Source: Stenotrophomonas maltophilia (GTDB taxonomy: Bacteria > Pseudomonadota > Gammaproteobacteria > Xanthomonadales > Xanthomonadaceae). Taken from it: a DNA stretch of 64,000 bases. The notes beneath the pieces were generated by a model, which ran no database searches, was not told the DNA's origin, and worked only from the letters and a program-made list of their open reading frames with translations. Location of the stretch: contig DGLB01000074.1 in assembly GCA_002387845.1 (NCBI GenBank), forward strand, positions 52,081 through 116,080, in the 5' to 3' direction. This document shows positions 1 to 57,021 of this stretch, piece after piece. Positions within the stretch are counted from its first letter, which is position 1. Each line of letters opens with the position of its first letter. The position numbers and the translations under genes were made by a program.

Positions 1-1301
1 GGCAGCGCGTCCTTGGCGGCTTCGTGCTGGGCGCGCTGGCCGGCTGGCTGCTGGGTCCGGCCGCTGAAACCTGGTTTGGTCCGCTCGGCGACCTGTACGT
101 CACCCTGATCAAGATGATCGCGGTGCCGCTGGTGTTCTTCGCGGTCATCAACGCGATCTCCTCGCTGCACGGGCAGAAGTCGGTGGCGGCCCTGGGGGGG
201 CGCACCTTCCTGTGGTTCATCGGCACCGCCGCACTGGCGGTGTGCGTGGGCCTGGCGGTGGGTACGGTCATGCAGCCGGGCACGGGCAACCTCAGCCTGA
301 GCATGGACCACGGCTACACCCCGCGCGAAGTGCCCAGCGTGGTCAAGGTGGTCATGGACGTGGTGCCGTCCAACGTGTTCTATGCACTGAGTGGCATCGG
401 CACGCGGGTCAATGCCGCGGGTGAGACCGTGCTTGCGGCGGGCCGGGGGTCGATCCTGCCGGTGATCTTCTTTGCCGGTCTGATCGGCTTCGCCATGGTC
501 AAACTCGGCGACAAGGTCGCCGAAGCGCGCAAGCTGACCGGGCAGATGAGCGAGATCATGATCCAGATCACCCGCTTCGTGCTGGAGGTGACCCCGCTGG
601 GTACCTTCGGCCTGATCGCAGGGCTGGTCGGCAGCTATGGGTTCGAGAAGCTGCTGCCGCTGGGCAATTTCGTGCTGGCGCTGTACATCGCCTGTGCCCT
701 GCACATCGTGGTGGTGTACGGCAGCCTGTTGCTGGCGCATGGGCTGAATCCGCTGAAGTTCTTCCGCGGCGCGTCGCCGGGCATGCAGGTCGCCTTTGTC
801 AGTTCGTCCAGCTTCGCCGCAATGCCGGTGGCGATGCGCTCGATCACCCACAACCTGGGCGTGAACAAGGACTACGCCTCGTTCGCGGTGCCGCTGGGTG
901 CCAGCATCAAAATGGACGGGTGCGGTGCGATCTACCCCGCGCTGTGCGCGGTGTTCATCGCCCAGTACACCGGCGTGCCGCTCACCCCGGAACAGTATGT
1001 AGTGGTGCTGATCGCCTCGGTGCTGGGCAGCTTCGGCACGGCTGGCGTGCCGGGCACGGCCGTGGTGATGGCCACGGTGGTGCTGAGCGCGGCCAACCTG
1101 CCGCTGGAGACCATTGGGTACCTGTATGCCATCGACCGCATCCTCGACATGATGCGCACGATGACGAACGTGACCGGCCAGATGCTGGTGCCGGTGCTGG
1201 TGGCCAAGGAAACCGGGCTGCTGGACCAGCAGGTGTACGACAACCCGTCCACCAACCCGGGGGTGGATGAAGCGCCACCGGAGCCGCGTTCCGGCAGCTG
1301 A
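1..1301 (+). CDS. Dicarboxylate/amino acid:cation symporter (DAACS family, GltP/DctA-like); 5' end outside window
   Basis: Open frame runs to base 1 with no stop. Conserved DAACS helices are present (LIKMIAVPLVFFAVINAISSL, SSSFAAMPVAMRS, GVPGTAVVMATVVL). The family N-terminus is missing, so the gene starts upstream of the window. Confidence 0.8.
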   Translation, partial: QRVLGGFVLGALAGWLLGPAAETWFGPLGDLYVTLIKMIAVPLVFFAVINAISSLHGQKSVAALGGRTFLWFIGTAALAVCVGLAVGTVMQPGTGNLSLSMDHGYTPREVPSVVKVVMDVVPSNVFYALSGIGTRVNAAGETVLAAGRGSILPVIFFAGLIGFAMVKLGDKVAEARKLTGQMSEIMIQITRFVLEVTPLGTFGLIAGLVGSYGFEKLLPLGNFVLALYIACALHIVVVYGSLLLAHGLNPLKFFRGASPGMQVAFVSSSSFAAMPVAMRSITHNLGVNKDYASFAVPLGASIKMDGCGAIYPALCAVFIAQYTGVPLTPEQYVVVLIASVLGSFGTAGVPGTAVVMATVVLSAANLPLETIGYLYAIDRILDMMRTMTNVTGQMLVPVLVAKETGLLDQQVYDNPSTNPGVDEAPPEPRSGS

Positions 1302-1467: not shown

Positions 1468-1483
1468 AACGCCTGCAATTGCA
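1468..1483. promoter_or_regulatory. Perfect 16-bp palindrome GCCTGCAATTGCAGGC immediately upstream of the candidate fap sigma-54 promoter
   Basis: Read directly from the sequence. It lies 14 nt upstream of the -24 element, a position suited to a repressor or IHF-like site. Confidence 0.3.
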
Positions 1484-1494
1484 GGCCTTCGGGA

Positions 1495-1512
1495 CTTGGC
1501 ACGAATGCTGCT
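1495..1512 (+). promoter_or_regulatory. Candidate sigma-54 (-24/-12) promoter for the fap operon
   Basis: TGGCACG-AATG-CTGCT matches the TGGCACG-N4-TTGCW consensus at 11/12 positions. The -12 GC lies about 34 nt upstream of the fapA start codon (1545), with RBS GGGAGA at 1534-1539. A sigma-54 EBP is encoded immediately downstream of the operon. Confidence 0.45.
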
Positions 1513-1544
1513 CTACCTCTCCCGCATGGTTTCGGGAGATCGCG

Positions 1545-2087
1545 ATGGACAGCGTTGCCGTACGAAGCAGAACCGCACGAAATGCCGCCTGGCTGCTGGC
1601 TCTGGCGGTGTTGCTGCCGATGGCCGCGCAGGCCTCGGGCGCACGCACCGGGGTCAAGGCGCAGCCGGGTGAGATCGTCCTGCTGCGCGATGTCTCGGCG
1701 CGGCCTGCGTACCGGCCCGCACCGCCCGGGGTCGCACTGATTGCCGACCCCTCGCCGAATCGCGAAGTGTCTGCCGCCCTGGGAACGTCTGGCGGCATGG
1801 ACGAACTGGGGGATGAAGATTTCGCCTCGATGGGGTCCAACACCGGCGCGGGCACGACGGGGCACTCGCAGACCACCGTGGAACGGGTCACCGGCGGCAC
1901 GGTCAACGCCACGCTGGGCAACATCACCGAGAACGGGGTGCTTTCCGGCAGCGGGCTGACCAAGACCATGAGCACCCCGATGAGCGCTGTTGGCAACGCC
2001 ACGCGCGGCATCGGCGATACCGTTCGCGGCGCGTTGTCGCAGTTCCCGATGGGCACCGGCCAGCCTGCAGGTGGGCCCGGCAAATGA
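1545..2087 (+). CDS. fapA: Secreted protein at the fapA position of the Fap amyloid operon (signal peptide; weak curlin-like GN(A/I)T motifs)
   Basis: ATG at 1545 preceded by GGGAGA. Signal peptide AWLLALAVLLPMAAQASG. The stop overlaps the fapB start (ATGA at 2084-2087). The assignment is positional: the sequence is not clearly FapA-like and carries NATLGNITENG / VGNATRGIG motifs resembling FapB/C repeats. Confidence 0.45.
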   Translation: MDSVAVRSRTARNAAWLLALAVLLPMAAQASGARTGVKAQPGEIVLLRDVSARPAYRPAPPGVALIADPSPNREVSAALGTSGGMDELGDEDFASMGSNTGAGTTGHSQTTVERVTGGTVNATLGNITENGVLSGSGLTKTMSTPMSAVGNATRGIGDTVRGALSQFPMGTGQPAGGPGK

Positions 2088-2716
2088 ATCGCACTGTCGC
2101 CTTCCTTGTCGTGGCCGCACTGCTGCCACTGTCTGCCGCCGCGCAGCAGGCAGACGACTACGCGGCGATGTTGAGCTATCTCAACCACAGCCGCATTGAC
2201 GGCAATGCGCTGCGCAATGCCGACGGCGCGATCACCGTGAACATGGTGTCCGGCGATCTCAACCAGCAGGCCAATCTGCTGGGTATGGCCAGCGGCGAAA
2301 CATCGGCCATCAACATCAGCGCGCGGCAGCGCCTGGCGGGCAACCGGGTCACCGGTTCGGGTCCGCTGGACGCCAGCGCCAGCATCGGCGGCCAGGCTCT
2401 GAACGGAGCCACCGGCGTTGCCATGATCAATCAGGCCAGCGGCATCGGCAACGCGACGGTCAACGTCGTGACAGCCACGCTGGCGCAACAGGGCATACGC
2501 GAGTCCGACGACGAGGCCCTCGCGGCTTCGGGGGCACTTGCGTCAGCAGGGGGGCAGGACCTCGCCAACAGCCGCAAAGCGGCTGGTACCCGCAGCGTCG
2601 CCGTGGAGGACACGGCATTGCGGGGCTTTGACGGCGTGCTGCAACTCAATCAGATCGCGGGTTCTGGCAACGCCACCGCCAACCAGCTTGGCATCTCCGT
2701 GCAGTCCACCCCGTGA
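2084..2716 (+). CDS. fapB: FapB-like amyloid nucleator subunit (secreted; curlin/Fap repeats)
   Basis: Signal peptide MNRTVAFLVVAALLPLSAAAQQ. Repeats INISARQ..GN, INQASGIGNATVNVVTA, QIAGSGNATANQLGIS fit the Fap/curlin Q/N-G-x-G-N-x-A pattern. Size (210 aa) and position match fapB. Confidence 0.65.
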   Translation: MNRTVAFLVVAALLPLSAAAQQADDYAAMLSYLNHSRIDGNALRNADGAITVNMVSGDLNQQANLLGMASGETSAINISARQRLAGNRVTGSGPLDASASIGGQALNGATGVAMINQASGIGNATVNVVTATLAQQGIRESDDEALAASGALASAGGQDLANSRKAAGTRSVAVEDTALRGFDGVLQLNQIAGSGNATANQLGISVQSTP

Positions 2717-2760
2717 GTTGTTTCACCCACCCGATAGTCCGTGATGAGAGAGAGGGCACC

Positions 2761-4197
2761 ATGAATACCACGATGAAAAGGACCGTACTGGCGCTGGCCG
2801 TCGCCGTTGCTTCTGCGTCGGTAGCCGCAAACCCCCGCCACAATGGACCGGATATCGATACCCGTATCGATACCCATATCGACACTGACATCCATACCGA
2901 TATCGACACCAACATCGATACCGATATCGATACCGACATCGATACCAAGATCCGCAACGAATGGGATTCGCGGACCAAGATCCGCAACACCAGCACCACC
3001 AACACCAGCAGCAACACCAGCACCGACACCCGCACCGTGAACCATTCGCGGCAGGTAACGGTGAACGAGAACGTACAGAAGAACAGCAACATCCAGGCCG
3101 ACGAGCGCAAGGAAAAGAACAACCACGGCGTCGACGTGAACCTGGAATCGGACCTGCAGGTTGGTGCTGATGTGCAGTTCCGCGGCCGTCCCACCGTGTC
3201 GGGTGACCTGGAAGTCGATTCGGCGGCCATCGCCATCATCGACAACCGCCAGTCGGTCACCAACAACCACGGTGACAACGAACTGCTCGAGAACAATTCC
3301 TCGATCAGCGAGAACGTCGCCCAGGGAGCGTCCGGCAACCTCGGCTTCAACACCGCCGCCGGTGACAACAACGCGCAGGACAATGCGGCCTCGCTGTCCG
3401 CCGCGGATGCCTCGTTCACCTTCGGCATGTCCGATGCCCAGGTCTACGTGAACCAGTACGGTGCCGGCAACCAGACCTGGAATGACGGCGTGGTCAACAA
3501 CTCCAGCATCAGCGGCAACGCCTTCCGCAACGCGACCGGCAACATCGGCGTGAACAGCGCGGCCGGCAACAACAACGAGCAGAAGAACGCGCTGGCCGCT
3601 TCGGTGTCCACCGCCCGCATGGCCACGGCGAGCATCAGCTCCAACCAGGTCTCCACGGGTAACAGCGTGTCCAACGAAGGCTACGTCAAGCGCATGCAGG
3701 ACACCACCGAAGTCACCCTGCGTGGCACGGTGCGCGGCGGTACCGCTGCCATCGGCGTCGGCGGTTATCGCGGCAGCGGCAACGCCTACCAGTCGTCCAA
3801 CTTCTATGCGGACAGCTGGGAAGGCGAGCGTCACACCGGTGGCGATTCGACCGGGCATATCGACTATGACAACCAGTCGCAGGGTGCGGTGCAGAACCCG
3901 AACCGTCCGGGCGTCGGCGGTCTGGGCTTCGACACCGAAGAAGAAGGCGTGCTGGCCTTCGGCGAAGTCGGCTATGCCGATCTGCGCGCAAGCCTGAGCG
4001 GCACGGTGCAGACCACGCGCTGGGTGGTTGAGCGTGCGGAAAACAACGCCTCGCTGTCCGGTGATGCGTTCCGCAATGCCAGCGGCAACATCGGTGTGAA
4101 CGTCGCGGCCGGCACCGGCAACCTGCAGGCCAACAGCCTGGCACTGGCCGTGGCCCAGCCGTCCACCGGCACCCCGGGTGGCGGTGGCGGCGAGTAA
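2761..4197 (+). CDS. fapC: FapC-like major functional-amyloid subunit with an N-terminal (x-I-D-T)n tandem repeat and a T/N/S-rich linker
   Basis: RBS GAGAGAGGG before ATG 2761. Signal peptide MNTTMKRTVLALAVAVASASVAA. Three imperfect repeats (SISENVAQGASGNLGFNTAAGDNNAQDNAASLSAADAS; SISGNAFRNATGNIGVNSAAGNNNEQKNALAAS; SLSGDAFRNASGNIGVNVAAGTGNLQANSLALAV) match the known FapC R1-R3 motif GN(I/V)GVNVAAGxxNQQxN. Ends in a Gly-rich tail. Confidence 0.75.
   Translation: MNTTMKRTVLALAVAVASASVAANPRHNGPDIDTRIDTHIDTDIHTDIDTNIDTDIDTDIDTKIRNEWDSRTKIRNTSTTNTSSNTSTDTRTVNHSRQVTVNENVQKNSNIQADERKEKNNHGVDVNLESDLQVGADVQFRGRPTVSGDLEVDSAAIAIIDNRQSVTNNHGDNELLENNSSISENVAQGASGNLGFNTAAGDNNAQDNAASLSAADASFTFGMSDAQVYVNQYGAGNQTWNDGVVNNSSISGNAFRNATGNIGVNSAAGNNNEQKNALAASVSTARMATASISSNQVSTGNSVSNEGYVKRMQDTTEVTLRGTVRGGTAAIGVGGYRGSGNAYQSSNFYADSWEGERHTGGDSTGHIDYDNQSQGAVQNPNRPGVGGLGFDTEEEGVLAFGEVGYADLRASLSGTVQTTRWVVERAENNASLSGDAFRNASGNIGVNVAAGTGNLQANSLALAVAQPSTGTPGGGGGE
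2851..2958 (+). repeat. In-frame 12-bp tandem repeat (about 9 units; gatatcgatacc family) encoding DIDT/RIDT/HIDT/DIHT/NIDT/KIRN inside fapC
   Basis: Eight to nine consecutive 12-nt units read directly: gatatcgatacc cgtatcgatacc catatcgacact gacatccatacc gatatcgacacc aacatcgatacc gatatcgatacc gacatcgatacc aagatccgcaac. Confidence 0.85.
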
Positions 4198-4334
4198 GCC
4201 TGTCCGTTTTCGCAAGCAACACGCGTTGAGCGCAACAAACCCGGTCATCCGCCAATGGCCGGGCTCCCCGGGAGCCCCTGTTCCATCCTCCCCCTTTGGG
4301 GCAGGGGCTCCTTCCTTTTCCTGGAGCCACGCCG

Positions 4335-5030
4335 ATGTCGTTCTGCCGTCTGCTCTGCGCGGTACTGCTGTTGCTGCCGATTGCTCGCCTGCATGCGGGT
4401 GACGTCGCCTTCAGTGGAGTACTGCCCAATGGCGCCCTGTTTAACCAGCAGGTGGAAAGCATGCAGGAGCGGAAATTCCGCAACCTGGTGCGGCAGCACA
4501 CCGACTACAGCTGCGGCGCGGCCGCCCTGGCCACCATCCTGCGTTACGCCTACAACCTGGAGGCGAACGAGGCCACCGTGATCGAGGGCATGATGGGGGT
4601 CTCCGACCCGGAGCTGGTGCATCAGCGCGGTTTCTCGTTGCTGGACATCAAGCGCTATGTCGAATCGCTGGGCATGCGGGGACGTGGCTACCGCGTCAAC
4701 GAAGAGCGCCTGCGTTCGCTGCGGGTGCCGGGCCTGGTCCTGATGGATGTGCGCGGTTTCCGCCACTTCGTCGTGCTCAAGCAGGTCCGTGGCGATGTGG
4801 TGGACCTGGCCGATCCGATTCTGGGCAACCGCAGCATCACGCTTGACGAATTTCTGCAGTCATGGCCGTCCCGCGCCGTGTTCATCGTGATCGGTAGCGA
4901 TTTCAATCGCAACACGGTGTTGCTGCAGCCTGGCGAACGCCCCAGTGCGCGTTCGCTGTACGCCCGGCAGGGGCCGATCACCGAAGCGGAACTGGTGGAT
5001 TTCGGCTTTACCCACGCCGACCTGCTTTAG
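4335..5030 (+). CDS. fapD: FapD-like C39-family cysteine peptidase (periplasmic, signal peptide)
   Basis: C39 peptidase core YSCGAAALATILRYAY (catalytic Cys), with H in RHFVVLK. 231 aa with an N-terminal signal peptide, matching Pseudomonas FapD in size and operon position. Confidence 0.8.
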   Translation: MSFCRLLCAVLLLLPIARLHAGDVAFSGVLPNGALFNQQVESMQERKFRNLVRQHTDYSCGAAALATILRYAYNLEANEATVIEGMMGVSDPELVHQRGFSLLDIKRYVESLGMRGRGYRVNEERLRSLRVPGLVLMDVRGFRHFVVLKQVRGDVVDLADPILGNRSITLDEFLQSWPSRAVFIVIGSDFNRNTVLLQPGERPSARSLYARQGPITEAELVDFGFTHADLL

Positions 5031-5038
5031 GAGGCATC

Positions 5039-5824
5039 ATGAACATCACCCCATGGACGCGAAGTGCGGTATTGCTGGCCCTGCTGGGCATGCTACCGGC
5101 CTACGCCGCCGACGCCCCGGCCACAGACGGGCAACGCAAGGCGGGCAAGGGACTGAGCGAGATTCCCGATCCCGAGCTGAACCTGATGCGCGGCCGTTAC
5201 ACCGTGAATGGCAACAGCGTGGCCTGGTTCGGCGTCACCATGATTTCGCAGTGGCAGGCCGGCACACAGGCCGCCGAAAGTGCGCTCACACTCGGCATGG
5301 ACTTCACCCACAGCGCGACGGCACCGAAAGTCAGCTTCACCCCCAGTGTCACCGTGACCGCGGCCGATGCGCCGCTGCCGGCCACACCGGGCCGCAGCGT
5401 GGAATCGGCCGGGCTGCAGAACGTGGCCGGTGTGACCCAAGCCATCCAGGTGGCCGGCGACAACAACGTGGCCAGCAACAGCACCCAGCTCACCGTGCGT
5501 GAGGGCAGTGCGCCGACCGGGCAGGCCACGTCCGCCGCGCCTGCGGCGACGGCACAGCACGGCGGCGTCAGCGCCGTGGCACAGATGGAGGGCAACAACG
5601 CCCAGGTGCAGCTGCAGATCGAAGGCGTCGGTGCGGTCCAGCAATGGATCCGCAACGGCAGCGTCGGCCAGACCATCGCGCTGAGCAGCGACGGCCAGGC
5701 GGTCAGCAACCGCATGCAGATCGAACTGGTGCGGCAGACCCTGGCAAGCAATGCGCCGTTGAGCCAGAACGTGGCGCAGGCCATGAACTTGGTGCGCGGC
5801 ATTGGCATGGGACCCGGTCAGTAA
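5039..5824 (+). CDS. fapE: FapE-like secreted Fap accessory/minor fibre protein
   Basis: Strong RBS AGGAGG 6 nt before the ATG. Signal peptide MNITPWTRSAVLLALLGMLPAYA. 261 aa, located between the C39 peptidase and the FapF-like barrel as in fap operons. Confidence 0.6.
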   Translation: MNITPWTRSAVLLALLGMLPAYAADAPATDGQRKAGKGLSEIPDPELNLMRGRYTVNGNSVAWFGVTMISQWQAGTQAAESALTLGMDFTHSATAPKVSFTPSVTVTAADAPLPATPGRSVESAGLQNVAGVTQAIQVAGDNNVASNSTQLTVREGSAPTGQATSAAPAATAQHGGVSAVAQMEGNNAQVQLQIEGVGAVQQWIRNGSVGQTIALSSDGQAVSNRMQIELVRQTLASNAPLSQNVAQAMNLVRGIGMGPGQ

Positions 5825-5866
5825 CCGGCCGGGTGGGGGGCGTCACCACAACCGTGGAACAAGGCA

Positions 5867-7165
5867 ATGCACACTTACCGCATGACTCCGCTGGCGCTGG
5901 CGGCGCTGGCGCTGATCCTCTCTGCCGGTGCACAGGCGCAGACCGCACCGGCCGATGAGGCCGACATCAAGGCGTTGGCCCAGCAGCTGGAAACACTGAA
6001 GGCCAACTACGCACAGGAAGTACGCCGCCTGCGCGAACTGGACATGCAGGTGCAGGCCATGCAGGCGCGCCTGTCCGGCAAGACCGGTCCGGCCACCGGT
6101 GCGGCCGCACCACCGCCGCCGGCCGTTGCGGCGGCGACCGCGCCGCCCAGCGGCGAAGGATATGCCAGCACGGCTGCCGAAGCGCAGCAGGCCCAACAGG
6201 CGTCCAAGCGCAGCGTGGACGACGTGAAGCAGCAGACCGCCACCTTGTTCACGCGTCGCTTCACGCTGGAAAACAGCCTGAGCTACGCACGCTATGACCG
6301 CAAGCAGGTGACGTTGAACGGCTTCCTGGCGTTGGACGCCATTTTCCTCGGCAACATCGCCATCGAAAACGTCGAATCGGACACGTTGACCTACAACCTG
6401 GCCGCGCGCTGGGGCGTGACGCCTCGCATGACGCTGAACCTGGACGTGCCGTATCTGGCGCGCAAGACGGTGTTCCAGAAGGGCGGTGCCGGTGGTTCGG
6501 CTGCGGCCATTGCACAGGAAGAAACGACCGGCAACGGGCTGGGTGACATCAGCCTGAGCGGCAACTTCCGTTTGAACCAGGAGAAAGGGCGCTGGCCGGA
6601 AACCGTGCTCAACGTCGGTGTGACCGCGCCGACCGGGCAGGAGCCTTACGGCGTGGACTGGAAAGTACTGGAGCGCGACGAGGACGACTTCATCCGTTTC
6701 GCCGTGCCGGGCGACCAGCCCACCGGCAACGGCGTGTGGCAGGCCAGCCTGGGCCTGTCGGCAGTGAAAACGGCGGATCCGGCGATCCTGTTCGCCAACG
6801 TCGGCTACATCCATTCCTTCGAACGCAGTTTCGACGACCTGGATGGCAATCCGGACACGGTGAACCCGGGTGACGTGAAGCTGGGCGGCTCGATCTACTT
6901 CGGTGCCGGCGTGGCGTTCGCGTTCAACGAGCGCACCAGCCTCAGCATGTCCTTCAGCGACAAGCTCAGCAGCCGCGCTTCCACCCGGTACAAGGGCGGG
7001 CAATGGGTCAAAGTGATCGGCAGTGACGCCAATGCAGCCACGCTGAATCTGGGCATCACCTACGCGCTCAACCGCAACACCACGCTGGTGAGTCAGCTGG
7101 GGATCGGGCTGACGCCGGATGCGCCGGACTTCACGCTTGCCTTCAGAATTCCGTACATGCTCTGA
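5867..7165 (+). CDS. fapF: FapF-like outer-membrane amyloid secretion channel (N-terminal coiled coil + Ala/Pro linker + beta-barrel)
   Basis: Signal peptide. Heptad coiled coil DIKALAQQLETLKANYAQEVRRLRELDMQVQAMQARL. Linker PATGAAAPPPPAVAAATAPP. Alternating-hydrophobic beta-strands ending in an aromatic C-terminus (RIPYML). 432 aa, matching FapF architecture. Confidence 0.75.
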   Translation: MHTYRMTPLALAALALILSAGAQAQTAPADEADIKALAQQLETLKANYAQEVRRLRELDMQVQAMQARLSGKTGPATGAAAPPPPAVAAATAPPSGEGYASTAAEAQQAQQASKRSVDDVKQQTATLFTRRFTLENSLSYARYDRKQVTLNGFLALDAIFLGNIAIENVESDTLTYNLAARWGVTPRMTLNLDVPYLARKTVFQKGGAGGSAAAIAQEETTGNGLGDISLSGNFRLNQEKGRWPETVLNVGVTAPTGQEPYGVDWKVLERDEDDFIRFAVPGDQPTGNGVWQASLGLSAVKTADPAILFANVGYIHSFERSFDDLDGNPDTVNPGDVKLGGSIYFGAGVAFAFNERTSLSMSFSDKLSSRASTRYKGGQWVKVIGSDANAATLNLGITYALNRNTTLVSQLGIGLTPDAPDFTLAFRIPYML

Positions 7166-7256
7166 GGCGCTTCTTCGCTTCGGGGTCATGCGCTACCGGT
7201 CGTTGTTTGTTTCAGTGCCGTCGTCTGTCGACCGACGCTACCGTTCGCACGCCGCG

Positions 7257-7282
7257 CGTAGTGACACGCCATGCGTGTCACC
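7257..7282. repeat. REP-type palindrome GTAGTGACACGCCATGCGTGTCAC between convergent fapF and the EBP gene
   Basis: Perfect hairpin TGACACGC-CAT-GCGTGTCA. The same family recurs at 34451, 38659, 58174, 61268 and 61309. Confidence 0.8.
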
Positions 7283-7361
7283 GGTACTCCATCAGCACGC
7301 CAAATCGCGCACAGCAGCCAGGCAACGCCCGGCGACAGGGAAAACCCGCACTTCCAGGCTG

Positions 7362-8699
7362 TCAGCGCAGTTCGGGCAGGGCGAGCTGGTGTTTGCGGCA
7401 GAGGCGGTAGACGGTGACCCGCGAGACCTGCATGGTGCGGGCGCAGGCGGTGATGTTGAAGTCGTTCTGGCGCAGCGCACGCAGCAGGGCATCGCGCTCG
7501 GCGGCCTGGCGTGCGTCATGCAGCAGGCGCTGCGGCACCTCGATGCCTTCCGGCTCTAGTTCCAGGTCGGCCACCGTGATCAGTTCCGCTTCGCTCACGA
7601 TGGCCGCGCGCTGCACGCGGTTCAGCAGTTCACGTACGTTGCCCGGCCAGCGGAACTGCTGCATCGCCTGCAGCGCCTCGCCGCTGAAACCCCGCGCACG
7701 GGTGACGTGGCGCTGGCGGAAGCTGGCCAGGAAGTGCTCGGCCAGCAGGATGATGTCGCTTCCACGGTCGCGCAGCGCCGGCAACGGCAGGCGCAGCACG
7801 TTCAAACGGTAGAACAGGTCGCGGCGGAACTGTCCGCGTTCCACCGCCTGTTCCAGGTCCACGTGCGTGGCCGCGATCACCCGTACGTCCACCGCCAGCG
7901 GCTGGTTGCTGCCCACCCGCTCGATGGTGCCTTCCTGCAGTACCCGCAGCAGATTGGTCTGCGCGTCCAGTGGCAGGTCGCCGATCTCGTCCAGGAACAC
8001 CGTGCCGCCGCTCGCCGTTTCAAACAGACCCAGCCGGCGACTGGCGGCACCCGTGAAGGCACCACGCTCGTGGCCGAACAGTTCCGATTGCACCAGCGCC
8101 GCCGGGATCGCCCCGCAGTTCACCGCCAGGAAGGGGCGCGCATGCCGGGACGACAGCGCGTGCAGCGCGTGCGCCGCCAGCTCCTTGCCCGTTCCGGTTT
8201 CGCCGGTGACCAGCACCGGCAGTTCCACCGGCGCAAACTTGCGCAGTGCGGCGCGGGTGACCTGCAGCGCCGGACTTTCGCCGATCAGGGCCTGCGCGCC
8301 TGAGGGCGGCTGCAGATGTTGTTCAGCGCCCAGTTCCTGCAGCCGCTGCACCAGGCGGGAAACGTCCAGCGGTGCGCTGAAGGTTTCCGTGCAGCAGGCC
8401 AGCAGGGGCTGCCACTGCGGATGCACCGCCGCCGCACCCGGTGGCAGGATCGCCAGCACGCGCAGGTGGCGGTGCTGGTCCAGCACCGCCTGCAGATGGG
8501 GCAGGTGAGGGGGAGCCACGCTGCGCAGGTCCAGCAGCCCGACCACCAGGTCGTTGCCGCGCATGCCGATCGCCACGGCACCATCGGTCGCCACACCGCG
8601 CACCCGCCAGCCTGCGGCCGCCAGGGCCGTGCGCTCTGCTGCCAGGGGTTGCCCAAACCAGATCACACACCGGGCTGGAATTTCAGGGACTGCCGCCAT
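7362..8699 (-). CDS. Sigma-54-dependent Fis-family transcriptional activator (enhancer-binding protein) with an atypical N-terminal domain
   Basis: AAA+ sigma-54 interaction domain (VLVTGETGTGKELAAHALH, GAFTGA, sensor RDLFYRLNVLRLPLPALRDR) and C-terminal Fis-type HTH (NITACARTMQVSRVTVYRLCRKHQL). RBS GAAGG before the start. Confidence 0.85.
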   Translation of the reverse strand: MAAVPEIPARCVIWFGQPLAAERTALAAAGWRVRGVATDGAVAIGMRGNDLVVGLLDLRSVAPPHLPHLQAVLDQHRHLRVLAILPPGAAAVHPQWQPLLACCTETFSAPLDVSRLVQRLQELGAEQHLQPPSGAQALIGESPALQVTRAALRKFAPVELPVLVTGETGTGKELAAHALHALSSRHARPFLAVNCGAIPAALVQSELFGHERGAFTGAASRRLGLFETASGGTVFLDEIGDLPLDAQTNLLRVLQEGTIERVGSNQPLAVDVRVIAATHVDLEQAVERGQFRRDLFYRLNVLRLPLPALRDRGSDIILLAEHFLASFRQRHVTRARGFSGEALQAMQQFRWPGNVRELLNRVQRAAIVSEAELITVADLELEPEGIEVPQRLLHDARQAAERDALLRALRQNDFNITACARTMQVSRVTVYRLCRKHQLALPELR

Positions 8700-8855
8700 G
8701 CGTCACCTTCACGGAAAGGTATCCGGGCGGAGTCTCCTGCTCAGCGCTACCCGGCGTGCCGCCCCACGCCGGAGTCCACCACCGGGCCATGGGAGGGCAG
8801 GGTGGGTTGTGAAAAGAACAACGCGGGTTCAACCCGCCAACGGCCATGCGGCAGG

Positions 8856-8890
8856 CAACGAAAAAGGCCGCTGCGATGCAGCGGCCTTCA
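8856..8890 (-). terminator. Rho-independent terminator downstream of the NlpC/P60 gene (minus strand)
   Basis: Stem GGCCGCTGC-gat-GCAGCGGCC, followed on the minus strand by TTTTTCGTT. Confidence 0.6.
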
Positions 8891-8916: not shown

Positions 8917-9753
8917 TCAGAGTTCGACCCGGCGGGCCTGCATGAACTTGCCGCCCCAGTAGCCGGTGATCAGGCTGTCGACGCGGACGTCCTTGCCGGT
9001 GCTCGGGGCATGCAGGAAGCGGCCTTCACCCACATAGATGCCGACGTGGTCGACCCGGCCCTTGCGGCCGAAGAAGACCAGGTCGCCTGCGGCCAGGGCG
9101 TTGCGGTCGTTGATCAGCTGGGCTTCGCCATCACGGGCCATTTCGCGCGACACGCGCGGCAACTCGATGCCCAGCGCGGTGCGGAACACATAGCCGACCA
9201 GGCCGCTGCAGTCGAAGCCGCTGTCCGGCGAGGTGCCGCCCCAGCGATACGGCGTGCCCAGCAGGGTCATGGCGCGGCGGAGCAGGGACTGGACCTTGCC
9301 GTTCTCGGCCGGGTCGGCGGCCACGATGGTGCCGTTGGACGCGTCGTAGTTCGCCAGCAGGCGGCTCAGGTCACCGGCGACCATCGCCGAGCGGTCCATG
9401 AGCGGAATGGTGTCATTGGCTGCCAGGTGCGGCAGCAGCGCGGCCAGGGTGGCGCTGGCGGCCGCATCGGTCTTGCTGCGGACCGGTGCCTCAGCCTTGG
9501 GCTTGGCAACGGCGGGAACCTCGGTGGCCGGCGTGGCCGGGATCGCAACTGCCTCCGGCGTGGCCGTCGGAGCGGTCTGGGCCCAGGCCGGAACACTGGC
9601 CAGGCAGAGGGCGAAAGCGAGAAGAGCGGGGCGGGCGATACGCCGTGGGGTGGCGGTCTGGCCTTGGCACGTCAAGTCGGCTGTCGTCACGCGGCGGTCA
9701 CTGAATAAAAACGATGGGTGATGATGCCGTGGAAAGCGTGTGATTAGGTACAA
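8917..9753 (-). CDS. NlpC/P60 (C40) family cell-wall peptidase, secreted
   Basis: YRWGGTSPDSGFDCSGLVGYVF ... DHVGIYVGEGRFLHAPSTG motifs (Cys-His catalytic residues of C40 peptidases). The start codon is uncertain; the signal peptide LLAFALCLASVPAWA lies downstream of the first Met. Confidence 0.75.
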   Translation of the reverse strand: MYLITRFPRHHHPSFLFSDRRVTTADLTCQGQTATPRRIARPALLAFALCLASVPAWAQTAPTATPEAVAIPATPATEVPAVAKPKAEAPVRSKTDAAASATLAALLPHLAANDTIPLMDRSAMVAGDLSRLLANYDASNGTIVAADPAENGKVQSLLRRAMTLLGTPYRWGGTSPDSGFDCSGLVGYVFRTALGIELPRVSREMARDGEAQLINDRNALAAGDLVFFGRKGRVDHVGIYVGEGRFLHAPSTGKDVRVDSLITGYWGGKFMQARRVEL

Positions 9754-9821: not shown

Positions 9822-10361
9822 TTAGTGCAGAACGCGTTTCGCGCCAGTGTAGTGGTCCTTCCAGTAGCTGCCGCCCAGCGAGTCCAGGCGGACCGTGCCA
9901 CCGGTGCTGGGGGCGTGCACGAAGCGCCCTTCGCCCACGTAGATACCCACATGGAAGACATTGCCGCGGTTGCCGAAGAACACCAGGTCGCCAGCCGCCA
10001 GGCGCTGGGGATCGATCTTCGGGCCTTGCACGGCGGCGAGGTCACGCGAGGTGCGGGGCAGTTTCAGGTCGACCATCTCGCGGTAGACGTAGGTCACCAG
10101 CCCACTGCAGTCGAACCCGGATTCGGGGGTGTTGCCGCCGTAGCGGTAGGGTGTGCCGACCAGACCGATGGCGCGCATCAGCACGGCGTTGGCGGCCTGC
10201 GGGTTGTTCGGGGTCACCGTGGGCCAGACCTGGGTCGAGCTCGGCGGTGCGGAAGGGCGGGCGGTTTTTCCGCCGCCACAGGCGGTCAGCAGGGCCAGAA
10301 CGGCAATCAGCGCCAGATGGGCTGGCAGGCGGGTCAAGCGCGAAACTGGCGTCAGCAGCAT
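9822..10361 (-). CDS. NlpC/P60 (C40) family lipoprotein peptidase (paralog of the preceding gene)
   Basis: Lipobox LALLTAC. YRYGGNTPESGFDCSGLVTYVY ... FHVGIYVGEGRFVHAPSTG. Start chosen at MLLTPVS (10361); the ORF could extend to 10424. Confidence 0.75.
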   Translation of the reverse strand: MLLTPVSRLTRLPAHLALIAVLALLTACGGGKTARPSAPPSSTQVWPTVTPNNPQAANAVLMRAIGLVGTPYRYGGNTPESGFDCSGLVTYVYREMVDLKLPRTSRDLAAVQGPKIDPQRLAAGDLVFFGNRGNVFHVGIYVGEGRFVHAPSTGGTVRLDSLGGSYWKDHYTGAKRVLH

Positions 10362-10470
10362 GATGTCCGGATAATGCGCGGCCTTGGAAGTCGCCATGAT
10401 GGCGGCGTAACCGGCGGGCGACAACCCGTCCCACCCGTCTGCCCCGGCAGCCCCAGCACAAGAGTTCCGT

Positions 10471-10950
10471 ATGAAGATCGCAAAAGACAGTGTCGTCCGC
10501 TTCCATTACACCGTGGCCGAACAGGGCCAGGACCCGATCGAAAGCTCGAAGGACCGTGAGCCGCTGGCGATCCTGATCGGCCATGGCAACATCATTCCGG
10601 GCCTGGAAAACGCCATGATGGACCAGGAAGCCGGTGCCAGCTTCGAGGTTGACGTCAAGGCCGCTGACGCCTACGGCGAGCGCCGCGAAGGCCTGACCCA
10701 GCGCGTGCCGAAGAAGCACTTCGGCAATGCCAAGCTGGTCCCGGGCCAGCAGGTCGTGCTGCAGACCAATTTCGGTCCGCGCGCGGTCACCGTTGAAAAG
10801 GTCGGCATGAGCGTGGTCGACGTTGACCTGAACCACCCGATGGCCGGCAAGGACCTGCACTTCTCGGTGGAGATCGTGGACGTGCGCGAAGCCCAGGCTG
10901 AAGAGCTGGAGCACGGCCACGTGCACGGCGACGGCGGTCACCAGCACTAA
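10471..10950 (+). CDS. slyD: FKBP-type peptidyl-prolyl cis-trans isomerase SlyD with His-rich metal-binding tail
   Basis: MKIAKDSVVRFHYT...ILIGHGNIIPGLENAMMDQEAG (FKBP fold with IF insertion). C-terminus HGHVHGDGGHQH. Confidence 0.85.
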   Translation: MKIAKDSVVRFHYTVAEQGQDPIESSKDREPLAILIGHGNIIPGLENAMMDQEAGASFEVDVKAADAYGERREGLTQRVPKKHFGNAKLVPGQQVVLQTNFGPRAVTVEKVGMSVVDVDLNHPMAGKDLHFSVEIVDVREAQAEELEHGHVHGDGGHQH

Positions 10951-10958
10951 GCCGATGC

Positions 10959-11083
10959 TGCCGGGCAAGCCCGGCACTACGGTGGGTTGCTGAATGTAGA
11001 GCCGGGCTTGCCCGGCTGCTTTCTGAATGTAGAGCCGGGCTTGCCCGGCTGCTTTTCGGGTTGCCGGGCAAGCCCGGCACTAC
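10959..11083. repeat. Cluster of four SMAG-type REP palindromes (two minus-orientation copies flanking two direct plus-orientation copies)
   Basis: tgccgggcaagcccggcactac (10959-10980), tgtagagccgggcttgcccggctg (10995-11018 and 11028-11051), ttgccgggcaagcccggcactac (11061-11083). These match the GTAG-containing palindromes characteristic of Stenotrophomonas maltophilia. Confidence 0.85.
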
Positions 11084-46530: not shown

Positions 46531-47310
46531 TTGACCATGCGCTACGCACTGGGCGTGGAGTACGACGGCAGTGAGTACAAGGGCTGGCAGCAGCTGGGTG
46601 AAAGCGGATGTCCCAGCGTGCAGGCCAGCCTGCAGGAGGCGCTGTCCTCGGTGGCCGATGCCCCGATCCAGGTCACCTGCGCCGGGCGCACCGACGCTGG
46701 CGTGCATGGCGAGTGCCAAGTGGTGCATTTCGACACCGACGCGGTGCGCGACCCGCGGGGCTGGACCCTGGGCACGACGACCCGGCTGCCGCGTTCGATC
46801 GCAGTGCGCTGGTGCGTGCCGGTCGCCGATGACTTCCATGCCCGGTTCTCGGCGCGGGCACGCCGCTACCGCTACCGCCTGCTGAACCGCCAGGTGCGAC
46901 CGGCCCTGTACCGCCAGACCCTCAGCTGGGAGCGCCGGCCGTTGGACGCCGGCCGCATGCACGAGGCGGGGCAGGCGTTGTTGGGCGAAAACGACTTCAG
47001 CGCCTTCCGCAGCGTGCAGTGCGAGGCCCTGCATGCCCGGCGTGAGCTGCAGGCGATCAGCGTGACCCGGCAGGGCGAGGTGATCGAGGTCTGCGTTCAG
47101 GCCAATGCATTTCTTCATCACATGGTGCGCAATATTGTCGGCTCATTGATTCTGATCGGTTGTGGGGAACAACCGGTGTCATGGATGGCCGAGCTGCTAG
47201 CAGGCCAGGACCGTACCGTGGCCGGCCCCACTGCACCGCCGCAGGGTCTTGTCTTTGTTGGCCCGTTGTATCCCGACAACTGGCACCTGCCTGCCGAGGT
47301 TACGTTATGA
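46531..47310 (+). CDS. truA: tRNA pseudouridine(38-40) synthase TruA
   Basis: [10 protein letters not shown]...[11 protein letters not shown] catalytic Asp motif. Confidence 0.9.
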
Positions 47311-53900: not shown

Positions 53901-56320
53901 ACCACGACGCCAGTCTGATCCTGCACGCGCTGCTGCCATTGCAGCAGGCCGCCGGCACGCTGCAGCATGCGCCACGCGCACGCGCGCTGGCCCTGCTGTT
54001 CTGGGCCGCGCAGCAGCGCCGCGAAGACGTGGCGCAGTGGTCTGCGCGTCAGGCCGGGGCCGATGCCATCGCCCGCCTGTTTGGTTCCAGCGAAGGTCAG
54101 CAGGCCCTGCTGGCCGAGATGACCACCGCATTGGATGCGTTCGTGCAGGAGCGCCAGCTGCCGTTCCAGACCGAAGATGCGCAGGCGTCGGCCGCCTATC
54201 TGGCTGCCGAACTCAGTGTCGGCGAGCCCGTTTTCAGCACCAGCCGCTACGCGCAGGCCCTGCTCGAAGCACTGACCCAGCATCTGCAGTCGGCCGGCCA
54301 GCGCGAAGCCTTCGACCGTGCCCTGCAACGCGAGCAGGACGGCCTTGCCGCGCGCTGGAAACTGGCGGGTCAATGGCTACGCGCACTGTGCCAGCTGCCG
54401 GCCTACGCCACGTACGCCGGCTACGCCGATGAGGCGGCAGCACTGCTGCTGGTGTCGCGTGCGCTGCGCACGCGTGGCAGCGAGGTCGCCCTGCAGGTAC
54501 AGGTGCAGGGGCTGCTGGGCGAGCACGCGCGCATCCAGCAGGGTCACCTCACCCTGTCGCTGGATGACTTCCTGGCACGCCTGCGCACCCACCTGCAGCA
54601 GTTCGTGCCGGCCTTCCATGCCTACCAGGGCGTGCGCCAGCGCATCATCGTGCGCGAGCGCGACGCCTTGCGCCTGTCAGAGTTCAAGGCCCGCCCGCTA
54701 TCCTCGTTCGTGCGCAACAAGCTGATCAACGACGTCTACCTGGGCGTGATCGGTGACAACCTGGCCAAGCAGATGGGCACGGTCGGCGAGAACAAACGCA
54801 GCGACCTGATGGGCCTGCTGATGATGATCTCGCCGCCGGGCTACGGCAAAACCACGTTGATGGAATACGTGGCGCACCGGCTGGGCCTGGTCTTCATGAA
54901 GATCAACGGCCCGGCGCTGGGCCACGAGGTGCGCTCGCTGGACCCGGCGCAGGCTCCCGATGCCACCTCGCGGCAGGAGCTGGAAAAGCTCAACCTGGCG
55001 CTGGAGATGGGCAACAACACCATGCTGTATGTCGACGACATCCAGCATACCCATCCCGAGTTCCTGCAGAAATTCATCTCGCTCTGCGACGGCACCCGCC
55101 GTATCGAGGGCGTGTGGCGCGGGCGCACCCGTACCTACGACATGCGCGGCAAGAAATTCTGCGTGGTGATGGCCGGCAACCCGTACACCGAGTCCGGCGA
55201 GGTGTTCAAGATTCCGGACATGCTCGCCAACCGCGCCGACATCTACAACCTGGGCGACGTGCTGGGTGGCATGGAAGAGGCCTTCACCCTGAGCTATATC
55301 GAAAACAGCCTGACCTCCAACGCGGTGCTGGCCCCGCTGGCGACGCGTGACATGGCGGATCTGTACCTGCTGGTCGACCGCGCGATGGGCAAGGAGGTCT
55401 CCACCAATGCGCTCAGCCACGCCTACAGCGGCGCCGAGATCAACGAGATCGTCGCGACCCTGCAACGCATGCTGCGCGTGCGTGACGTGGTCTACCGGGT
55501 CAACCAGCAATACATCGCCAGCGCCGCACAGGACGACCGCTACCGCACCGAGCCGCCGTTCCGGCTGCAGGGCAGCTACCGCAACATGAACAAACTGGCC
55601 GAGAAGATCTCGCCGGTGATGAACGAGGCCGAGCTGCAGCAGCTGGTCTCCGACCACTATCTCGGCGAAGCGCAGCTGCTGACCACCGGTGCTGAAGAGA
55701 ACCTGCTCAAGCTGGGCGAACTGCGTGGCGTCCTGGGCGAGGATGAGCTGCAGCGCTGGGCGCAGATCAAGCGCGACTTCCTGCGCAACAAGGCCATGGG
55801 GGCAGGCGATGCCGATGTCGGCGGTCGCGTGGTGGCGCAGCTGGCCGACATCGCCAGTGCGCTGCAGAGCAGTGCCGACGCCGCACCGCTGAATGCAGCG
55901 GACCCCGCACCGTGGCCCGCATTGCTTGCCGCATTGGAGCGCCTGGTTCCGGTGCCGGCACCGGCCACACCTGTGGTTGCGGCGGAGTTCGCTCCTGTCG
56001 ACACCGGCGTGCCGCACCCCCCACCGCTGCCGGCCGCCGAGCCGATTGCCCAAGGGTTGCAGGAAGGGCTGGCCCCGCTGCTGCAACTGCTGGGCCAGGC
56101 CAATGCGCAGCAGGCGCGCACCGGTGAAACCCTGGCCTTGCTGGCCAGCTGGGTGCGCGAACAGATGGAGCGCGGCCCGGCCGCACCGCCACGCCCGCGC
56201 GCACGCCGCGCCAGCACGCCGCAGGAGCGTGCGCTCGACGAGGCACTGATGCGTCACTTCTACGGTGAATCCACCCTGCCGCCGCGGTGGACCGGCGCTG
56301 CGGATGATGCGCCGGCATGA
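50930..56320 (+). CDS. Giant (1796 aa) uncharacterised protein: unknown N-terminal domains, extended central helical/coiled-coil region, C-terminal MoxR/AAA_5-like ATPase domain
   Basis: RBS GGAAG. Walker A ISPPGYGKTTLMEY, Walker B NTMLYVDDIQH, sensor-1-like VVMAGNPYTESGEVFKIPDMLANRADIY (compare MoxR ATQNP...LPEAQLDRF). Central A/L/E/Q/R-rich helical region. Stop overlaps the next start (ATGA). Confidence 0.7.
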   Translation: MSDTDPRPDPSSAEATTTVDQAVAQGGAYEVLRRRLGEQGTRLRGLADALNRQRLVEFGDSRLEVIGRFRIRSENNCVGRDIVQVGPDLLLFGYNVYLGLKTQTRVEDVFGLYRLVQSGEGYDVVPVDAKGSFLAQAGFVHDFSELYAYYKHARLLQLIKVGDKLLASFQIGERSSDVRVFRWAVSREGELTYLDARGERDIALPPPFDFEWTRATRDMAVSGRHSHLNILDTLFVETTGGDLTIKVENNTESGQGIYSEPVDDSTQSLDDAQFDFVRVGSLVLLKVLPYRETVWRGLIYNTLTGAIVRNDAIVQACVQLPEDHGIIFPGGYYLQSGEHKAFDASMQGMQFKRAIRSPNGEDVLYIFYEREGGRSALFVYNTIQRVLQNPVFGHGYAFMHDGRMVLFHAEGTEPTRIHPMQVWQTPFSSDEFAASRPPGNTFMGRIGNAELVRGISNLFDLARTIEGQDVSVQRYQRLVQDTRRMFDAHHWLDDASCDGAAGLLREISATGESVLDEYEKVQSIRQQSAQAMAQAQSSQKALLARLQPENWTGVQAFVEALNAISTQRGHLLTIRDYRYIDTDVIDAMTTALQEAHDRVGAATGQFLADERALAPLGERLQALDEAAQQAESARVLDEQLAGMRGMAADLDMLSALMAGLKVDDATARTRVVEAISAVYARLNQSRVRAEQRRRTLGSAEAVAQFAAQFALFSQSITSALGMATDPERADEQMSRLLVQLEELESQFGEHEQFLGDILAKREELIEAFETHKQALLDERQRKARSVLDAATRILDGLAKRTERFASADELNAFFAGDPLVLKLRELAERLRELRDSVKADDVEARLKGVRDQAVRALRDRSDLFEAGGNVVRLGPRHRFSVNTQALDLTLLPRGDELAIHLTGTDFLEALHDPELAELKAYWQLGLDSESAQLYRAEYLAGSLLLAAMEARDGLDLAALQHAAAEPDALEKIVRDFAAPRYREGYERGIHDHDASLILHALLPLQQAAGTLQHAPRARALALLFWAAQQRREDVAQWSARQAGADAIARLFGSSEGQQALLAEMTTALDAFVQERQLPFQTEDAQASAAYLAAELSVGEPVFSTSRYAQALLEALTQHLQSAGQREAFDRALQREQDGLAARWKLAGQWLRALCQLPAYATYAGYADEAAALLLVSRALRTRGSEVALQVQVQGLLGEHARIQQGHLTLSLDDFLARLRTHLQQFVPAFHAYQGVRQRIIVRERDALRLSEFKARPLSSFVRNKLINDVYLGVIGDNLAKQMGTVGENKRSDLMGLLMMISPPGYGKTTLMEYVAHRLGLVFMKINGPALGHEVRSLDPAQAPDATSRQELEKLNLALEMGNNTMLYVDDIQHTHPEFLQKFISLCDGTRRIEGVWRGRTRTYDMRGKKFCVVMAGNPYTESGEVFKIPDMLANRADIYNLGDVLGGMEEAFTLSYIENSLTSNAVLAPLATRDMADLYLLVDRAMGKEVSTNALSHAYSGAEINEIVATLQRMLRVRDVVYRVNQQYIASAAQDDRYRTEPPFRLQGSYRNMNKLAEKISPVMNEAELQQLVSDHYLGEAQLLTTGAEENLLKLGELRGVLGEDELQRWAQIKRDFLRNKAMGAGDADVGGRVVAQLADIASALQSSADAAPLNAADPAPWPALLAALERLVPVPAPATPVVAAEFAPVDTGVPHPPPLPAAEPIAQGLQEGLAPLLQLLGQANAQQARTGETLALLASWVREQMERGPAAPPRPRARRASTPQERALDEALMRHFYGESTLPPRWTGAADDAPA

Positions 56321-57021
56321 TGCGTGGCTGGCCCGTGCCGGTGCCTGTGGCAACCGACGCACTCGGACTGTCACGCTACGGCGCGTCGTTGCTCGATGCG
56401 CTGGGGCAGGGGGCGACGCCGCCGGTCGGGCATGACCCTGCGGCGGCACGCCTGCTCGCGGTGCTGGCACAGCTGGGCGCGGTGGTGCAGGCTGCCAACC
56501 CTGCCGCGGCGCGACGTCGTGTCAGCTGGTGGGGACGTCTGCTCGGGCGCGATGTCGAACAGGAGCTGGAGGCGCACGACAGCCAGTCACGGCTGGGTGT
56601 GCTGCTGGTACAGGCCGATGCGGCCGTGCGGGGCGTCGCCGCGCAGCTGGCACAGCAGGCGGCGGCGCAGGAACGCGCCATTGATGCCGCTATGATCCTT
56701 GAAGCCTGGGCCGATGCCGGACACGCGCAACTGGCCGCGTTGGCTCCGCCTTTGCAGGATGTATTGGCGCAGCGATTGGACCATCTGCGCCGGCTGGCCG
56801 CGCTGCAGCAGGTCGAGGCGGGGCAGTGGCAGCTGCTGCGCGAACAGAACGCAGCGCTGCTGGCCCGCAGTCAGCGCATTACCGAGACCCTGCTGCCGGC
56901 ATGGCAGCAGACCGTGCTGACGCGTCGGGCCGCCGACCAGCAGCAGCGCGACCAGCAGGCCACGCAGCTGCTGGCGCAGATCAGCGCCGAGGTCGCCTCG
57001 GCGCAGGCTAGACTGGACTGA
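56317..57021 (+). CDS. Hypothetical helical protein (234 aa, Ala/Gln/Leu-rich), translationally coupled to the giant ATPase gene
   Basis: ATGA overlap at 56317-56320. No recognisable motif. Predicted amphipathic helices. Confidence 0.5.
   Translation: MMRGWPVPVPVATDALGLSRYGASLLDALGQGATPPVGHDPAAARLLAVLAQLGAVVQAANPAAARRRVSWWGRLLGRDVEQELEAHDSQSRLGVLLVQADAAVRGVAAQLAQQAAAQERAIDAAMILEAWADAGHAQLAALAPPLQDVLAQRLDHLRRLAALQQVEAGQWQLLREQNAALLARSQRITETLLPAWQQTVLTRRAADQQQRDQQATQLLAQISAEVASAQARLD

Follow-up and report, generated by a model that had tools for sequence, protein, structure and literature searches.

The 64,000-nucleotide stretch of Stenotrophomonas maltophilia DNA considered here (GenBank assembly GCA_002387845.1, contig DGLB01000074.1, positions 52,081 to 116,080 of the forward strand; called the window below and numbered from its first letter) carries a fapA-F operon for the Fap amyloid, which is very probably driven by a sigma-54 promoter at 1497-1512 and by the sigma-54 activator encoded at 7362-8699. 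Control by RpoN and an adjacent enhancer-binding protein was proposed in the initial annotation of the window, and the comparison of related loci supports it strongly, with the promoter present in 75/75 loci, the activator gene linked to fap in 74/80 and an upstream palindrome that occurs in front of fapA only. The same annotation regarded this regulatory link as not established for fap operons. However, for Pseudomonas fluorescens PF07, rapid amplification of 5' cDNA ends and deletion of rpoN and brfA have already established that RpoN and the adjacent convergent activator BrfA drive fapA-E (Guo et al. 2022, PMC9207406), and fapABCDEF is down-regulated in an rpoN mutant of P. fluorescens UK4 (PMC8202526). 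The fap operon of Stenotrophomonas is a further case of the RpoN/BrfA circuit known from Pseudomonas and not a new regulatory link. The RpoN/BrfA switch for the Fap amyloid is accordingly not restricted to Pseudomonas. In Stenotrophomonas, the opportunistic pathogen group S. maltophilia included, it is ancestral and belongs tightly to the fap locus. A literature search turned up no work on how fap is regulated in Stenotrophomonas.

The features on which this reading rests are the following.

1331-1348: candidate distal upstream activating sequence, the 18-bp palindrome TGTAACAGCCGTGATACA (TGTNNCA-N4-TGNNACA)
1426-1443: candidate proximal upstream activating site, a TGTAACA half-site (1426-1432) with a degenerate second half
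1497-1512, plus strand: sigma-54 (-24/-12) promoter TGGCACGAATGCTGCT, one mismatch to TGGCAC-N5-TTGCW
1545-2087, plus strand: fapA (NCBIfam chaperone_FapA, E 6e-8)
7362-8699, minus strand: sigma-54 activator gene, 445 aa, convergent to fapF

Two sets of loci were compared with the window. The Stenotrophomonas set comes from a scan of one genome per species, with an alignment of FapF proteins to which that of Pseudomonas UK4 belonged, and consists of the best 80 of 430 relatives, which are all Stenotrophomonas-type; the other ~350 (Burkholderia, Aeromonas and others) lie outside the comparison. The region upstream of fapA is present in 75 of these 80 loci. The Pseudomonas set consists of 80 fap loci of the P. 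fluorescens group (L083-L162) from metagenomes, found with the solved UK4 FapF as the query.

The motif placed at 1497-1512 by the initial annotation is indeed present in the sequence. In TGGCACGAATGCTGCT the GG doublet (1498-1499) and the GC doublet (1510-1511) are exactly 10 nucleotides (nt) apart, which is the spacing of sigma-54 promoters. The element is intergenic and oriented toward fapA, and its GC doublet lies 34 nt ahead of the fapA ATG at 1545 (ATGGACAGC), a start that is kept across fap loci. The usual distance after the -12 element places the predicted transcription start at ~1520-1525 (~1523). By itself, the motif is not significant. With up to one mismatch the sigma-54 consensus has four matches in the window against 3.3 expected, and the other three (46703-46718 and 56082-56097 on the minus strand, 56741-56756 on the plus strand) are all inside long open reading frames and probably due to chance. 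The case for a promoter therefore rests on position and conservation.

Both are strong in the comparison. An element of the form TGGCA[CT]G-N4-NTGC[TG] precedes fapA in every one of the 75 Stenotrophomonas loci that retain the region, with promoter scores of at least 8 of 11 throughout and at least 9 in all but one locus. Its distance to the fapA start is 34-51 nt in nearly all of them and 74 and 92 nt in two. When the loci are aligned on the motif, conservation is 90-100% in TGGCACG and TGC, against 30-70% in the 4-nt spacer and the flanks. These data bear on a rival explanation, in which the -24/-12 match is non-functional, fap is transcribed from a sigma-70 or other promoter, and the activator has other targets, for example the NlpC/P60 gene beside it. 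The chance-level frequency of the motif in the window speaks for such an explanation; its presence in 75/75 loci at a fixed distance from fapA speaks against it. Simple scans of 1250-1600 found no intrinsic terminator and no sigma-70-like promoter, and the latter result also argues against the rival.

The upstream palindromes provide the second line of evidence. TGTAACAGCCGTGATACA, which reads TGTAACA-N4-TGATACA, is the sole perfect match to TGTNNCA-N4-TGNNACA in the window, where 0.02 are expected. In nearly all Stenotrophomonas loci an 18-bp palindrome is found at -152 to -167 from TGGCAC, in both arrangements of the activator gene described below, and most loci also have the half-site TGTAACA at -69/-70. 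Relative to the predicted start of fapA, the distal site is centred at ~-183 and the proximal site at ~-88, which places them 95 bp, or ~9 helical turns, apart and within the ~80-200 nt range usual for enhancers. The association with fapA is exclusive: in 1.52 Mb of Stenotrophomonas loci 58/58 perfect matches, and in 1.18 Mb of Pseudomonas loci 84/84, fall within 260 nt upstream of the -24 element of fapA, with none elsewhere. This restriction to fapA argues against a non-functional promoter. In the Pseudomonas fap loci, CGGCAC-N5-CTGCT is preceded by two palindromes, one at -81 and the other at -128 to -163, of the form TGTNTCA-N4-TGAAACA. The palindrome family is therefore shared by both genera, in a different dosage: one strong and one weak site (~-166 and ~-71 from the -24 element) here, two strong sites in Pseudomonas. 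The recognition-helix region of the helix-turn-helix of the activator is also alike in both genera (SRVTVYRLCRKH versus SRPTFYRLLHKH). The palindromes at 1331-1348 and 1426-1443 are the best candidates for the binding sites of the activator.

The gene at 7362-8699 encodes a sigma-54 enhancer-binding protein, as first annotated. The protein matches Pfam Sigma54_activat (PF00158, E 2e-69) together with AAA_lid_14 and HTH_8, and is built from a VpsR-type receiver-like domain (~1-125), an AAA+ domain (138-382) and an HTH_8 domain (400-432). The Walker A (GETGTGKE) and Walker B (FLDEIGD) motifs are intact, and so is the GAFTGA loop that contacts sigma-54 (HERGAFTGAASRR). The N-terminal domain had been described as atypical and non-canonical. 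It is a degenerate receiver, and to that extent the description is correct; the fold, however, is not an unknown one, since it corresponds to Pfam VpsR (PF20161). The same family is matched by 13/13 N-terminal domains of fap-linked activators from both genera, and a profile of these domains finds the VpsR receiver domain (7Y19, E 1.8e-11), followed by the PhoP and NtrC receivers at ~0.006. Residues G30, W31, R47 and D50 are invariant in the fap-linked activators of Stenotrophomonas and Pseudomonas, and R47 and D50, which form an RxxD motif, are a lead for a cyclic di-GMP (c-di-GMP) site. At the phospho-acceptor position, residue 57, Stenotrophomonas and VpsR have Asp and Pseudomonas BrfA has Arg. 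The activator gene has no histidine kinase gene next to it.

Judged by sequence and position, the window activator is very probably the Stenotrophomonas equivalent of BrfA from Pseudomonas. The brfA open reading frame of PF07 has 1,326 bp (441 codons plus stop) and lies convergently after fapF (PMC9207406). Homology was measured against a 441-aa protein encoded where brfA lies in fap loci of the P. fluorescens group, and not against the PF07 sequence itself; the window protein aligns with this reference over residues 25-439 with 330 bits, E 6e-114 and 47% identity, and the Pseudomonas fap-linked activators in general are 46-47% identical to the window protein over the same residues. Wherever a Pseudomonas locus has enough sequence past fapF, the convergent activator gene is there. 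The likeness to the PF07 system (Guo et al. 2022; Guo et al. 2024; Ru et al. 2026, PMC13101488) extends to the -24/-12 promoter before fapA, to the activator gene convergent just after fapF, and to the succession of a VpsR-type N-terminal domain, an AAA+ domain with GAFTGA and an HTH_8 domain. The differences are in the host order (Xanthomonadales/Lysobacterales here, Pseudomonadales there), in the -24 element (TGGCAC here, CGGCAC in most Pseudomonas loci), and in the orientation of the activator gene in the S. maltophilia group, where it is divergent from fapA. The present lineage also keeps Asp57 in place of Arg, its host has two RpoN paralogs, and its promoters are without the consensus site for integration host factor (IHF).

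Two other activators share parts of this architecture. VpsR of Vibrio cholerae (PDB 7V2B, 7Y19), a c-di-GMP-dependent activator of the biofilm matrix, has the same N-terminal receiver-like domain and three-domain layout, and like the window protein has Asp at the receiver position. PMC6158489 describes VpsR as lacking the residues for sigma-54 contact and acting with sigma-70 RNA polymerase. In contrast, the Walker motifs and GAFTGA are intact in the window protein, whose target promoter is of the -24/-12 type. The protein was accordingly rejected as a VpsR-type, sigma-70-dependent activator: its AAA+ domain is not degenerate, and only the N-terminal domain is VpsR-like. FleQ of Pseudomonas aeruginosa resembles the window protein in its AAA+ sigma-54 activator core (251 bits) and has a part in the biofilm/motility switch. 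It differs in controlling matrix genes without RpoN (PMC9207406, discussion). FleQ, a c-di-GMP-binding enhancer-binding protein, also has another N-terminal domain than the window protein. The c-di-GMP contacts of FleQ are the Arg of LFRS and the Arg-Asn after Walker A; in the alignment, the window protein has GAQA and His-Ala at these positions.

The third line of evidence is the linkage of the activator gene to fap. In the window the gene is convergent to the operon and 196 nt past fapF, and an ortholog with 59-97% identity adjoins fap in 74 of the 80 Stenotrophomonas loci; the remaining six are truncated at the flank that would carry the gene. The arrangement is not constant: the gene is convergent after fapF in 55 loci, and in the other 19, which belong to the S. 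maltophilia group, it is divergent and directly upstream of fapA. In these 19 (L031-L033, L035, L037, L041, L043, L046, L047, L050-L052, L056-L058, L065, L071, L075 and L082) the activator is at ~4040-5410 on the minus strand and fapA starts from ~5800, the symporter and NlpC/P60 neighbours seen in the window are absent, and the promoter and both upstream sites lie within the intergenic region shared by the activator gene and fapA, which would allow autoregulation of the activator. Since the activator adjoins fap in both arrangements and NlpC/P60 is lost in the divergent one, the linkage to fap has survived rearrangement.

The genes and hairpins on the far side of the activator gene are as follows.

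8823-8882, minus strand: two terminator-like hairpins in the gap between the NlpC/P60 gene and the activator gene
8917-9753, minus strand: NlpC/P60 gene (Pfam), upstream of the activator gene
10042-10977, minus strand: open reading frame without a family match, upstream of the activator gene

The hairpins suggest that the activator gene is transcribed as a unit of its own. If the -24/-12 match were non-functional and the activator served other genes, NlpC/P60 would be a candidate target, as the activator gene follows the NlpC/P60 neighbourhood on the same strand. The hairpins between the two genes and the 19 divergent loci, in which the activator stays with fap and not with NlpC/P60, argue otherwise, as does the experimental precedent in Pseudomonas (PMC9207406, PMC8202526), and we consider this explanation very improbable. 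The 74/80 linkage, the failure of NlpC/P60 to travel with the activator gene and the separating hairpins therefore tie the activator to fap and not to its other neighbours.

Several observations weigh against RpoN/BrfA-type control of fap in this lineage. The number of sigma-54 matches in the window is, as noted, at the chance level. An IHF-consensus site (CAA-N4-TTGAWW, plus strand) is present in 50/60 Pseudomonas fapA promoters, ~28-40 nt upstream of CGGCAC, within AT-rich sequence that separates the proximal palindrome from the -24 element, and most Stenotrophomonas promoters have lost this site: the corresponding slot holds an IHF-consensus site in 5/75 Stenotrophomonas loci. Residue 57 is Asp in the Stenotrophomonas proteins against Arg in BrfA. 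Finally, the N-terminal domains have diverged, with 18-22% identity between the genera in the multiple alignment, so the sensed signal could differ; compared pairwise and alone, the two domains are collinear, with 31% identity over 94 residues (E 4e-4). The window does hold two IHF sites with one mismatch (-140 and -129 relative to TGGCAC), which were set aside as not conserved.

These differences are the basis for an alternative in which the Stenotrophomonas circuit is wired differently from that of Pseudomonas BrfA, through a kinase input, a choice of RpoN or an extra palindrome element. The activator, with D57 and the RxxD motif, might respond to c-di-GMP and also to phosphorylation by an unlinked kinase. 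It may be selective between the two RpoN paralogs of the Xanthomonadales, RpoN1 and RpoN2, both of which are encoded by S. maltophilia (bioRxiv 10.64898/2026.02.02.703240). The strain-specific perfect palindrome next to the -24 element could serve as an extra operator or insulator that is absent from Pseudomonas. Taken as a whole, we regard this alternative as unlikely.

The preferred mechanism follows the Pseudomonas circuit. RpoN holoenzyme would bind at 1497-1512, and fapA-F would be transcribed from that sigma-54 promoter. The activator would bind 1331-1348 and the weaker site that begins at 1426 through its C-terminal Fis-type helix-turn-helix, a DNA loop would bring it to the promoter-bound holoenzyme, and ATP hydrolysis together with the GAFTGA loop would open the promoter. 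Both the dependence on RpoN in this organism and the binding of DNA at the palindromes are what we infer from the comparison. The signal that switches the activator on would be c-di-GMP, sensed via the VpsR-type N-terminal domain, so that the amyloid matrix would be coupled to a biofilm signal. Later work reported that BrfA, an enhancer-binding protein, senses c-di-GMP (Guo et al. 2024, Microbiol Res 287:127864; cited by PMC13101488 and by a 2026 preprint on SBW25). By analogy, c-di-GMP may be the activating signal in Stenotrophomonas as well, a proposal for which we judge the chances to be about even. For work on amyloid-dependent biofilms in Stenotrophomonas, the analysis provides precise sites at 1497-1512, 1331-1348 and 1426-1432.

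The initial annotation had drawn attention to another palindrome, closer to the promoter.

1471-1486: perfect 16-bp palindrome GCCTGCAATTGCAGGC, ending 10 nt ahead of the -24 element

This palindrome is real, and GCCTGCAATTGCAGGC has one copy only in the window, so it was rejected as a repeated extragenic element. As a conserved regulatory site it does not stand: among the 80 loci, the arms GCCTGC-N4-GCAGGC are kept at that place only in the closest relative (L003), and the conserved elements are 1331-1348 and 1426-1432. A reverse-strand sigma-54 promoter using the TTGCA within it was also rejected, as no GG is found at the needed distance. The gel-shift experiment proposed in the annotation implied that the adjacent enhancer-binding protein binds here. 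The perfect symmetry of the palindrome and its place directly upstream of the promoter would suit such a site, which would nevertheless be only 10 nt from the -24 element, nearer than enhancers usually sit. Its arms are not conserved beyond L003 while the recognition-helix region of the activator is well conserved, and another, strongly conserved palindrome lies further upstream in both genera. Binding of the activator at 1471-1486 is thus highly unlikely. From its distribution, the 16-bp palindrome is strain-specific and not an enhancer. The target for binding studies moves from this palindrome to the upstream elements, and no new kind of regulation is implied.

The palindrome may instead be a separate element, for example an operator of another regulator that overlaps the promoter, a stop for read-through from the symporter gene or a bend that replaces the IHF site. 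Many relatives with the convergent arrangement have a GC-rich inverted repeat with differing arms in this place, the slot roughly equals the position of the IHF-consensus site in Pseudomonas promoters, and the palindrome as RNA would fold with -19.5 kcal/mol. However, the zone folds no better than its shuffles (z -1.8 in the window; mean z -0.2 across loci, on which ground a generally conserved hairpin was rejected), it has neither a T-run nor a predicted terminator, and loci with the divergent arrangement have no clear repeat there. The palindrome may also be a mere chance feature of one lineage. A separate function is a possibility that we hold to be rather doubtful.

The remaining features of the locus are listed below in order of position.

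24-1301, plus strand: dicarboxylate symporter gene
1302-1544: intergenic region of 243 nt between the symporter gene and fapA
1317-1362: longer inverted repeat with 21-nt arms, 86% complementary, enclosing the distal site
1518-1539, plus strand: inverted repeat TCTCCCG-N8-CGGGAGA, with the ribosome-binding site of fapA (GGGAGA, 1534-1539) as 3' arm
2084-2716, plus strand: fapB (NCBIfam FapB, E 1e-23)
2713-4197, plus strand: fapC, 494 aa (NCBIfam FapC, E 3e-50, residues 161-480)
4296-5030, plus strand: fapD, a C39 peptidase gene with an uncertain start codon (NCBIfam C39_FapD, E 1e-75; Pfam Peptidase_C39)
5039-5824, plus strand: fapE (NCBIfam FapE, E 3e-23)
5867-7165, plus strand: fapF, outer-membrane amyloid transporter (NCBIfam FapF, E 1e-114)

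Two further inverted repeats flank the regulatory elements. The repeat at 1317-1362 begins 16 nt past the stop codon of the symporter gene and as RNA has a folding energy of -30.7 kcal/mol (z -4.0); it may double as the terminator of that gene. The repeat at 1518-1539 lies in the leader, and the predicted sigma-54 start falls within its 5' arm. Transcripts reading through from upstream could therefore mask the fapA ribosome-binding site, and sigma-54 transcripts would not. The zone of this repeat folds mildly better than its shuffles, with a mean z of -1.4 in the 55 loci with the convergent arrangement and of 0.0 in a control zone; no consensus structure came from RNAalifold, and counts of the named structure are not above those of slid controls.

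All six Fap proteins of the window match the NCBIfam Fap models, with scores under the Pseudomonas-tuned cut-offs. The fapF product also matches the solved Pseudomonas FapF barrel (PDB 5O65) with E 4e-78. At 494 aa, FapC is about twice the length of FapC of P. fluorescens PF07 (251 aa, 756-bp open reading frame), and its long N-terminal part of 160 residues falls outside the Pseudomonas-based FapC model. Both the activator (98%) and FapF (96%) have close homologs in Stenotrophomonas. Complete Stenotrophomonas-type fap loci are also found on contigs L017 (JAHREJ010000021.1) and L032 (JBJNRH010000003.1), labelled Bacillus subtilis SK7B5 and Nocardiopsis yanglingensis A18, with FapF identities of 84% and 76%, respectively. 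One further FapF carries the label Flavobacterium sp. MXW15 (entries P0030 and P0164 are in the same group of odd labels). The Bacillus, Nocardiopsis and Flavobacterium labels probably reflect contaminated or mislabelled assemblies.

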